From Alphaproteobacteria bacterium (lineage in GTDB: Bacteria; Pseudomonadota; Alphaproteobacteria; UBA2966; CAIVPW01), in NCBI GenBank assembly GCA_016869235.1, contig VGER01000001.1, positions 54,596-118,595 on the forward strand: a stretch of 64,000 nt of DNA. Direction: 5' to 3'. The position numbers were made by a program. Positions 27,840 through 30,800 of the stretch are shown piece after piece. Each line of letters begins with the position of its first letter. The first letter of the stretch is position 1.

Positions 27840-30800
27840 GCATCGACGGCAAGTGGGACGTGCGCGACCAGCCGCCCGAGTTCTGGGGACAATTCAACAC
27901 CGACTTCCCGCCGGGCACGCACATCCGCGTGCATCCCTTGCTGCATTGGACCGAGATCGACATCTGGCGCTACACCGAGCGCGAGAATATCCCGACGATC
28001 CCGCTCTACTTCTCCAAGAACGGCAAGCGCTACCGCTCGCTCGGCGACAAGGACATCACCTTCCCGGTCGACTCCAAGGCGAGCTCGATCGCCGAGATCA
28101 TCCAGGAGCTGCAGACCACCAAGGTCGCCGAGCGCGCCGGACGCGCCATGGATCACGAAGCGGAGGACGCCTTTGAGCGCCTGCGCGCCGACGGATACCT
28201 CTGAGATGGCAACGTCCGCAACGAGCGCCTCCCGCGAAAGCCTGCGCGTCGCCGTCGTCGGTCATGTCGATCACGGCAAGTCCACGCTCGTCGGCCGCCT
28301 GCTGCACGACACCGGCAGCCTGCCGCAAGGCAAGGTTGAGGCCATTCGCGCCATGTCCGAGCGGCGCGGCATGCCGTTCGAATGGGCGTTCCTCATGGAC
28401 GCGCTGCAGGCGGAGCGCGACCAAGGCATCACCATCGACACGTCGCAGATCTGGTTCAAGACGCCGAAGCGCGACTACGTCATCATCGACGCACCCGGCC
28501 ACAAGGAATTCCTCAAGAACATGATTACCGGCGCGGCCGCCTCCGACGCGGCGCTCCTGGTGATCGATGCCGACGAGGGTGTGAAGGAGCAATCGCGCCG
28601 TCACGGGTACCTCTTGCACCTGTTGGGCGTGCGCCAAGTGGCCGTCGCCGTCAACAAGATGGACTTGGTCGGCTACAGCGAGAAACGCTTCGCCGCCATC
28701 GAGAAAGAGTACCGCGCGTACCTCGCGAGCATCGGCGTGACGCCGACCTACATCATCCCGATCGGCGCGCGCGACGGCCAGAACATCGTCGGTAAGGCCG
28801 ACAAAATGGCCTGGCACGGCGGGCCGCACGTCCTGGAAGCTCTCGAGCGCTTCAACGTCGTGACACTGCCGACGCACCTGCCGCTGCGCATGCCAGTGCA
28901 GGACGTGTACAAGTTCGATGATCGCCGCATCATCGCCGGCCGTATCGAGAGCGGCATGCTCAAGGTCGGCGATCGCATCGTGTTCTCGCCCTCTAACAAG
29001 TCGGTACGGGTGAAGACCATTGAGGCGTGGGCTGCGCCACCGCCGGACCGCGCGAGCGCTGGCCAGTCCGTCGGCTTTACGGTGGATGAGCAGATCTTTG
29101 TCGAGCGCGGAGAGATCGTCAGCCATGAGGCGAATCCGCCGGTCGAAACCGACGTTTTCCGAGCGCGCCTTTTCTGGCTCGGCAGAACGCCCCTGACCCA
29201 AGCTGCGCGCTACAAGCTGAAGCTTTGCGCCGCGGCAGCCAATGTCCGTGTGCAGGCGATCGAGCGCGTCATCGACACAGGGGATTTGTCGAGCGCCGCC
29301 GCGACAGAAGTGAAGCACTCCGCTGTGGCGGAGGTGATCCTGCAGGCCGATCGCATGCTGGCGCTCGATGAGTTCGTTAACTCGCCGCTTACCGGCCGCT
29401 TCGTGCTGGTGGACGGCTACGACATCGCCGGCGGCGGCATAGTCTCGATGGAGGGATACGCCGATCAGCGCCACCTGATCACGGTGCGTGCCTCTAACAT
29501 CACCCGCGTCGAGCATGCTGTATCAGTTGATGCCCGGGCGCGGCGCAACGGGCACCAGGGTGGAGTCATCTGGCTCACGGGCCTGTCTGGTTCCGGCAAG
29601 TCGACACTGTCGATCACCGCCGAGCGCCGGCTTTTCAACATGGGCTACCAAGTCTACGTGCTGGACGGCGACAATATGCGCCATGGGCTCAATTCAGACC
29701 TTGGCTTCTCGCCGGACGAGCGAGCCGAGAACATTCGCCGGGTCGGCGAGGTTGCGGCGCTGATGGCGCGGGCTGGCGTCGTAGTTATCACGGCATTTAT
29801 CTCGCCCTACCGATCTGACCGCGAGCGAGCGCGCAGGGCCGCAGGCGGCAACTTCCATGAGGTTTACGTGCAGGCCGACCTCGCAACCTGCGAGGCGCGG
29901 GATCCGAAGGGCCTCTATCGCAAGGCGCGCGCCGGCGAGATCGCCGAGTTCACGGGAATCTCTGCGCCCTACGAGGAACCGCAGTCTCCCGAACTCGCAC
30001 TCGATACGACGAGGCTCTCCATCGAGAGCGCTGTCGACGTACTTGTTGGCTACGTAAGCGAGCGGTTCGGCGTCGAACAGGTGCGCCTGACCCGCAAGGC
30101 CGGCGCGTGATTTCCTAGCGGGCTGCGAGAGCGCCGTCCTTGGGCACGGTAATGCCGCTCTTCGCCAACTCGCGCTCGAGCGTCGCTCGTATGCGCGCCA
30201 ACGTCTTTTCGTCCTTGCCCTCCGCGCGCCACCAGCGCCGCCTGGGTGTTGGACGCGCGGACCAGCCACCACCCGTCGTCGGTTTTCACGCGTACTCCGT
30301 CCACGTCGATGACGTCCGCCCCGGCAGAACGCATGCGATTGCGCAGCTCTTCCACGATGGCAAACTTGCGCTCCTCGGCGCAGAACAGGCGAAGCTCTGG
30401 GGTGTTGGGCAACTGCTCCAGCGAAGCGACAAGCTGCGCTGGCGTCTGCTCATTCCGCGCGAGCATGCCGAGGCAACGAACCGCGGCATAGATGGCGTCG
30501 TCGAAGCCGAAGTAGTGATCTGCGAACAGTCTTCTCACCGCCGCCTTCCCGGACAACGACGGTTCCGAAGGCGCGGCCAATGGCGAGGGCGTCCTCCGCA
30601 CGGATCGTCAGACCGACGATGCCGCGAATATCGTAATCGCGCGGGATTGTTGGATGAAATCGATGGGACTGCACGGTGCAAGTATAGTATTGGCACGCGG
30701 CGGGCCAACGCGACAGCGTCAACGCGCCACGGCGACCGCGATGACGTGACGGCTCGGTGCATGGCCTCGAAGGATCAACAGATGAGCACCTCTTTACGTG

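Follow-up and report, generated by a model that had tools for sequence, protein, structure and literature searches.

PgmG/AlgC-type mutases are bifunctional phosphoglucomutases/phosphomannomutases with a four-domain architecture in one open reading frame (ORF) of about 460 amino acids (aa). The phosphoserine loop reads TGSHNP in the alphaproteobacterial homologues compared here, and the sugar-binding loop reads GEMSGH or GELSGH. Bacterial pseudogenes are usually eroded under a deletional bias, and the pseudogenes of the Yersinia pestis O-antigen cluster show a similar general pattern. Here, we analyzed a stretch of 64,000 nucleotides (the window) from contig VGER01000001.1 of the alphaproteobacterial assembly GCA_016869235.1, in which a broken mutase gene lies on the minus strand between cysNC and a GT4 glycosyltransferase gene. 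It is very probably the non-functional remnant of a ~460-codon PgmG/AlgC-type gene, which seems to have become dispensable in this clade and was probably lost in parallel in close relatives.

Three pieces of a PgmG/AlgC-type mutase

The remnant comprises three colinear PgmG/AlgC-type pieces at 30115-30674 of the minus strand, each in a different reading frame (Table 1), and it lies within the 671 bp between the end of cysNC at 30110 and the start of the GT4 gene at 30782. The N piece aligns to AlgC residues 12-47 and to positions 3-40 of 138 of the Pfam domain PGM_PMM_I, where its match (E=0.015) stays below the threshold because the piece is truncated. With the intact orthologous N-half on the related contig L054, which likewise starts with GTG, it shares 74% identity. 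The TTG at 30722 is a mechanical ORF opening and not the gene start; the L054 orthologue begins with GTG at the equivalent VKPHRF. The C1 piece, in the +1 frame relative to the N piece, maps from residue 335 onward of the homologue L007 and keeps the R-x-S-N-T phosphate-binding loop of domain IV in DGWWLVRASNTQ (RASNT, reference residue 424). The C2 piece aligns with the C terminus of PgmG-type proteins, up to profile position 458 of 460. The frame changes twice, at 30525/30526 and at 30223, and each piece is free of stops within its own frame.

An earlier note on this DNA had described a phosphomannomutase (PMM)/phosphoglucomutase (PGM) pseudogene formed by a large internal deletion and a further frameshift. 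Pfam, the structure match, the alignment to the related contig L048, and the frames themselves all bore this out, and the translated pieces quoted in the note were present on the minus strand in three frames. When aligned to 36 full-length alphaproteobacterial homologues from genome contigs, the pieces fell on residues 4-53 and 335-464 of a homologue of 464 aa. The gap, large as the note had claimed, was measured at 281 residues against this homologue and at 840 nt (280 codons) against L048, instead of the ~290 codons first estimated.

In Pfam, PGM_PMM_IV (PF00408; E=1.4e-13, 51 bits versus a cut-off of 23) was the sole domain over threshold; domains I (PF02878) and III (PF02880) gave sub-threshold fragments of 15.4 and 14.5 bits, and domain II (PF02879) had no Pfam match in the remnant. 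The four domains were not found in one ~460-aa ORF, three frames being needed to read the pieces. The Pseudomonas aeruginosa PMM/PGM structures matched the remnant at E=3e-27; the N piece covered their residues 12-47, and the C part covered residues 319-454. NCBIfam NF046027 (PgmG) was the best family for both ends (E=2.7e-63), the C part lying on profile positions 329-458 of 460, and its score was low (214 bits versus a cut-off of 600) because the middle of the protein (profile positions ~50-328) was missing. By tblastn, the remnant matched 42 alphaproteobacterial PMM genes, down to E=1e-49, and the closest database proteins were PMMs 45-61% identical to it, from Stellaceae, Rhodospirillales, and other Alphaproteobacteria. 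Homology by descent is supported by the significant similarity of both ends to alpha-D-phosphohexomutases, in colinear order.

The phosphoserine loop T(A/G)SHNP and the Mg2+ loop DGDGDR were found in none of the three minus-strand frames, and the sugar-binding loop GE(M/L)SGH was missing from the remnant. Their reference positions (GSHNP at residue 109, DGDGDR at residue 245, and GELSGH at residue 327) all fall within the gap at 54-334. The junction lies just 3' of the sugar loop, and GELSGH is still present in the relatives L048 and L049. The claim that the catalytic serine and the metal-binding loops were gone proved correct, and the sugar loop has gone with them. Since these loops were lost in the gap, the product predicted from the sequence can no longer be a mutase. 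The remnant keeps 44 of the 51 columns conserved in at least 90% of homologues. Where it departs from them, for example with IPRDYD instead of ILREYD, the change is confined to the window lineage.

Table 1. Features of the mutase remnant and its flanks (window positions)
Feature	Position	Strand	Description
N piece	30525-30674	minus	50 codons from the GTG at 30674, ending ...GGGEKTV; start of domain I
Deletion junction	30525-30526		TT common to both flanks of the undeleted L048 (nucleotide alignment)
C1 piece	30224-30526	minus	101 codons, FADHYF...DGWWLVRASNTQAALVAR (ends ALVAR); end of domain III and most of domain IV
Orphan G	30223	minus	place where 2 nt were probably lost from a GCGCGCG run; ancestral sequence ..GCG CGC GCG GAG.. 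= ARAE
C2 piece	30115-30222	minus	last 35 codons (30222-30118), EGKDEKTLARIRATLERELAKSGITVPKDGALAAR, EGKDEKTL...KDGALAAR; original stop at 30117-30115
Spurious ORF	30050-30601	minus	183 aa; spans C1, then enters the 3' end of cysNC out of frame
Promoter-like site	30681-30708	minus	TTGGCC-16 nt-TATACT; sigma-70-like consensus match just upstream of the old GTG
cysNC	28173-30110	plus	fusion of sulfate adenylyltransferase subunit 1 and adenosine 5'-phosphosulfate kinase (GTP_EFTU + APS_kinase)
GT4 glycosyltransferase	30782-32014	plus	first gene of the divergent operon; identical to MBM3506198.1

A putative relic promoter precedes the old start codon. It was the only sigma-70-like match in 29800-31000 (mean of 0.2 in shuffled sequence), and in L048 both hexamers and the stretch from TATACT to the GTG are identical, with one extra base in the spacer. 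Translation from the old GTG would yield a 74-aa peptide with an out-of-frame tail. No Rfam matches were found in the window, and no terminator-like sites were found around the remnant. Six public contigs carry P0001, the ORF predicted on the remnant by gene callers. The GenBank entry for the spurious ORF is "hypothetical protein FJX64_00415" (MBM3506197.1, P0241), 162 aa long, from the same DNA with another start call.

Retention of the promoter-like site, largely conserved in L048, the prediction of the ORF by both gene callers and GenBank, and the stop-free pieces would suit a shortened functional product, such as a stand-alone domain IV protein, a small N-terminal peptide, or an antisense transcript into cysNC. 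However, we regard such a product as highly improbable. The last ~60 residues of the ORF are out-of-frame read-through over cysNC, whose 3' end is overlapped by ~60 nt on the other strand, and the frameshift deprives domain IV of its final helix. Neither the 74-aa ORF nor the 162- to 183-aa ORF is conserved in relatives, the corresponding DNA lying in several frames in L049 and having a different structure in L048. Domain IV alone of the alpha-D-phosphohexomutase fold (as in PDB 1K2Y) carries no catalytic residues, which also counts against a shortened product. The remnant most likely does nothing now, and MBM3506197.1 should be flagged as a pseudogene. At present, part of the remnant is listed as a hypothetical protein, and pipelines could count its PGM_PMM domain as a mutase; both would be wrong.

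Two lesions and their reproducibility

The relative L048 has a GT4 protein 97% identical to that of the window, and over 4337 bp the DNA identity is 95.1%. At the same place, the window is missing 840 nt of L048 (positions 954..115), in which domains I-III are encoded in the right order. On the coding strand, L048 reads GAGAAGACTGTT/TGCGTC at the left flank and CACCTCTTC/TTCGCAGAT at the right flank, and the window junction reads GAGAAGACTG-TT-CGCAGAT. The microhomology at the breakpoint is exactly 2 nt (TT), inside an imperfect TT(T/C)GC match. Around the junction there are only short, apparently chance repeats, and no mobile-element signature or meaningful repeats were found around the remnant. 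An illegitimate deletion between the two TT-sharing sites would have removed the 840 bp and, with them, residues ~54-334. This stretch takes in the greater part of domain I, the whole of domain II, and almost the whole of domain III. We infer replication slippage or microhomology-mediated joining as the mechanism. The junction had been put down to a deletion or a rearrangement; it is an intragenic deletion, and a rearrangement is contradicted by the order cysNC-remnant-GT4, which is conserved in L049. The fact that 840 is a multiple of 3 was considered as a sign of the state of the frame before the deletion and was rejected, as both scenarios predict it with a probability of about 1/3.

The second lesion took 2 nt out of a run of GC dinucleotides close to the 3' end. 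The change at 30223 is best read as this simple loss from GCG CGC GCG GAG, since L049 reads SARAEAKHEKAL (ARAEAK) in one frame and homologues read ARAE or ARCE; strand slippage would be its likely cause. The earlier note had recorded a further "+1 shift" at this point, and the frame change stands with this different origin. A short GCGCGC repeat at the second lesion is also what a reversible on/off switch by slippage, i.e., phase variation, would call for. However, the 840-bp deletion is irreversible, all catalytic loops are gone, and the repeat has only ~3 units and the same length in all five assemblies compared below, so that the chance of such a switch is negligible.

We also examined whether the lesions might be sequencing or assembly artefacts hiding an intact ~1.4-kb mutase. 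The window comes from a metagenome-assembled genome (MAG), and such assemblies can collapse or mis-join sequence. However, five of the six contigs with P0001 (L001-L005), separately assembled from five separate runs (SRR7990526, SRR16108669, SRR16108670, SRR16108676, and SRR7985589) were 100.000% identical to the window over their full lengths (965-6591 bp), across the remnant and its flanks. The copies of relatives are broken too, and the ends of the deletion are unique sequence sharing only TT, which leaves no collapsible repeat. An artefact is therefore extremely improbable. Restoration of a full-length ~1.4-kb ORF, named beforehand as the outcome that would overturn the pseudogene, was not seen in any of the five contigs; this comparison was made at the level of assemblies, and the reads themselves were not inspected. 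Two of the independently assembled contigs, L001 and L002, both end exactly at 28268, ~95 nt into cysNC, a shared stop that represents a common assembly break.

Broken copies in relatives and the number of losses

The mutase copy of L048 is full-length, lacking the gap, but it carries at least eight frameshifts: the frame changes eight times over residues 4-353. It also has TDSHNP instead of TGSHNP. The contig L059, from another run, differs from L048 by one single-nucleotide polymorphism. Five of the seven gaps in the alignment of L048 to the window fall in 280 nt of mutase and upstream DNA, and two fall in 4050 nt of intact neighbours; this clustering indicates that the L048 frameshifts are real decay and not read error. 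In the N piece, L048 has three indels of its own, whereas the frame of the window is unbroken; in the comparable regions, the window has no small indels versus three in L048. At their positions 1-29, L048 and L059 diverge from the window (~30441 downward) inside the C-terminal part of the mutase, and both contigs end there. These 29 nt carry a hairpin, CCCGC-TTTC-GCGGG, that is absent from the window, and they may be the edge of an inserted or repeated element there.

In L049, cysNC and GT4 are 87% and 76% identical in protein to those of the window, and the layout is the same: cysNC, a ~420-nt remnant on the opposite strand, and then GT4. Its deletion borders differ, however. L049 keeps residues 1-30 and IIAPLAGELSGHL, which is not in the window, and lacks a 16-residue stretch that the window keeps. 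The rest of its remnant is split across several frames, and it has no frameshift in the GC run.

In L054, L055, and L050 (GT4 identity of 63%), the mutase is divergent from a GT2-DUF2304-GT4 operon. The first 182 mutase codons of L054 are uninterrupted, TGSHNP included, and this N-half matches PgmG at E=3.8e-63. At the orthologous position, L048/L059 carry the missing 840 nt, and the L054 N-half stands beside the orthologous GT4 operon. When the L054 N-half was used to look for a full-length orthologue, the best full-coverage matches were ~60% identical and none was an orthologue. In L057, a 144-kb contig syntenic over the whole locus, no mutase homology was found between cysNC and GT4, and in L058, cysNC directly adjoins GT4.

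Wider searches gave no further syntenic copy. A scan of the genome collection with the remnant returned 42 PMM loci, 39-68% identical, none with cysNC or GT4 within 10 kb, and these were used only as full-length references; none of the 52 PMM loci from a metagenome scan was syntenic. L043 and L046, with apparently higher identity, were set aside as frameshifted long-read MAG genes in other contexts, and L102 was rejected as a further deleted copy, being an ordinary PMM fragment.

A GT2 gene of the polyprenyl-phosphate sugar synthase type and a DUF2304 gene lie between the mutase and GT4 in L050, L053, L054, and L055 (567-1693 in L054). Both genes are missing from the window, L048, and L049. 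In L057, DUF2304 homology is found at 9686-9986, just upstream of GT4, in two overlapping frames, which reflects either gene decay or an assembly frameshift.

The timing of the loss was assessed by comparing the window with L049 over 78 reliably aligned codons. Differences amounted to 20.5% at the first, 11.5% at the second, and 48.7% at the third codon position, compared with 22/10/59% in GT4, 22/12/48% in orf333, and 7/7/41% in cysNC, all functional neighbours. Had the mutase been neutral since the split, positions 1 and 2 would be expected to be as diverged as position 3, which was not seen (binomial P <1e-4 versus the neutral rate from the third positions of the neighbours). This pattern suggests that the mutase was under selection for most of the divergence between the window and L049. 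The comparison of the window with L048 has little power: 232 nt yielded 11 substitutions, of which 3, 2, and 6 fell on the first, second, and third codon position. No lesion common to the window, L048, and L049 lineages was seen. At least two, and probably three, close lineages appear to have lost the mutase by different lesions. Given the codon-position pattern, the 44 of 51 kept columns, and the lack of a shared lesion, independent and fairly recent inactivations are favored as the somewhat likelier course over a single ancient loss.

In that other scenario, the mutase would have died once in the ancestor of the window, L048, and L049, with later erosion producing the three states. All three lineages are broken at the same position, all three lack the GT2-DUF2304 pair present beside intact-looking mutases, and an initial lesion might have been in DNA that the window no longer has. 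However, the window and L049 differ by codon position as a gene under selection would, and the window shows no small indels where L048 has three. We consider a single ancient loss unlikely. An adaptive reading is improbable as well: instead of neutral decay of a redundant gene, convergent loss by different lesions in three close lineages, after long selection, would have remodelled a sulfated, carbamoylated, nonulosonate-containing surface glycan. If this doubtful reading were true, a hexose branch might, for example, have been dropped under phage or grazer pressure. Loss of the GT2-DUF2304 pair as a recent trigger that made the mutase dispensable was downgraded, the mutase having been selected long after the common ancestor.

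The ancestral mutase gene lay divergently upstream of the GT4 operon and convergent with cysNC. It seems to have become dispensable in the clade, as the same gene was independently wrecked in the two nearest relatives found, and to be undergoing erosion by the usual bacterial deletional bias. Dispensability could be explained by another PGM/PMM in the genome or by a glycan that needs no mannose 1-phosphate (Man-1-P) or glucose 1-phosphate (Glc-1-P), the two options that the earlier note had raised for a mutase that may have been locus-specific. No intact mutase paralogue was found by tblastn in the 64-kb window or in the 10 kb past its 3' end, and this locus supplies no Man-1-P or Glc-1-P. The remnant probably persists because it is recent; in addition, one of its ends borders the promoter region of GT4 and the other the 3' end of cysNC.

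Several points weigh against this account. Protein similarity guided the choice of blocks for the codon test, with a resulting bias to conservation at positions 1 and 2, and only the 29-codon N block was contiguous. No full-length intact syntenic orthologue was found, the L054 copy ending at its contig end after 182 aa. Lesions in the deleted part cannot be seen, and one of them may have inactivated the gene before the 840-bp deletion. The identity of the five contigs excludes random error and is no read-level proof, as a single clonal population may be the source of all of them. Finally, transcription from the putative relic promoter is possible.

The surface-glycan locus and comparison with known systems

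The remnant had been placed at the edge of a glycan locus. In fact, it lies inside one locus, with glycan genes on both sides. On its upstream side are genes for YjbF, a Wza-like exporter, YjbH, cysD, and cysNC, the last of which is convergent with the remnant, with 4 bp between the stop codons. GT4 starts 107 bp from the old mutase start codon and is followed by two unknown proteins, SxtJ/DUF5989, a carbamoyltransferase, AsnB, an epimerase, more GT4s, and then sulfotransferase, PseB-like, RmlD-like, NeuB, and cytidylyltransferase genes, an ABC transporter, and an MBOAT. The arrangement from the exporter to AsnB is syntenic in L057. The locus covers more than 40 kb and extends at least 10 kb past the 3' end of the window.

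As a whole, this surface-glycan locus (20873-63800, and L112) has group-4-capsule-like export (YjbF, Wza-like, and YjbH), its own supply of 3'-phosphoadenosine 5'-phosphosulfate (cysD and cysNC) with a sulfotransferase at 46117-47490, a carbamoyltransferase with SxtJ/DUF5989, and nonulosonic-acid genes (NeuB at 50704-51771 and a cytidylyltransferase). A second NeuB/cytidylyltransferase set lies beyond the window.

The GT4 frame stays open for 640 nt upstream of its ATG at 30782, antisense through the whole remnant (30140-32014, plus strand), and gene callers extend GT4 in L048/L059 to 452 aa because of this open antisense frame upstream of the real start. The upstream-open frame is an antisense-ORF artefact of high-GC DNA. 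Next to GT4, a protein of unknown function (32014-33015, plus strand) shows 21, 15, and 22 differences by codon position versus L048 over 332 codons, compared with 11, 4, and 20 in GT4; by these counts, its sequence is evolving fast. Elsewhere in the window, ARAGORN calls a tRNA-Asp (anticodon ATC) at 3994-4072 on the minus strand, inside a MutY-like ORF at 3542-5281, which is probably a false positive.

New with respect to the earlier note are the position of the junction to the base, a relative in which the deleted DNA survives, evidence that sister lineages eroded in parallel, and an annotation error in the database. One gene can here be followed at three stages of erosion, with many small indels, with one 840-bp microhomology deletion, and with multiple deletions. 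This hints that the composition of the capsule-like glycan is changing within the clade. In itself, the remnant is an ordinary decaying pseudogene and leaves our knowledge of pseudogene formation unaltered.

Compared with PgmG (NF046027), the remnant has the same best family at both ends, but it lacks profile positions ~50-328 and its frame is broken twice, so that it is not a working member. Compared with AlgC of P. aeruginosa (PDB 1K2Y, 1K35, and 1P5D, among others), the alignments of the ends and the RASNT loop are shared, whereas the phosphoserine, Mg2+, and sugar-binding loops are missing. Decay under the bacterial deletional bias, including that of inactivated surface-glycan clusters, shows the same features as those described here: a large microhomology deletion, small slippage indels, and staged erosion in sister lineages. 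By that comparison, nothing unusual was found; the one point of note is the loss of the same gene through different lesions in at least two, and probably three, close lineages.

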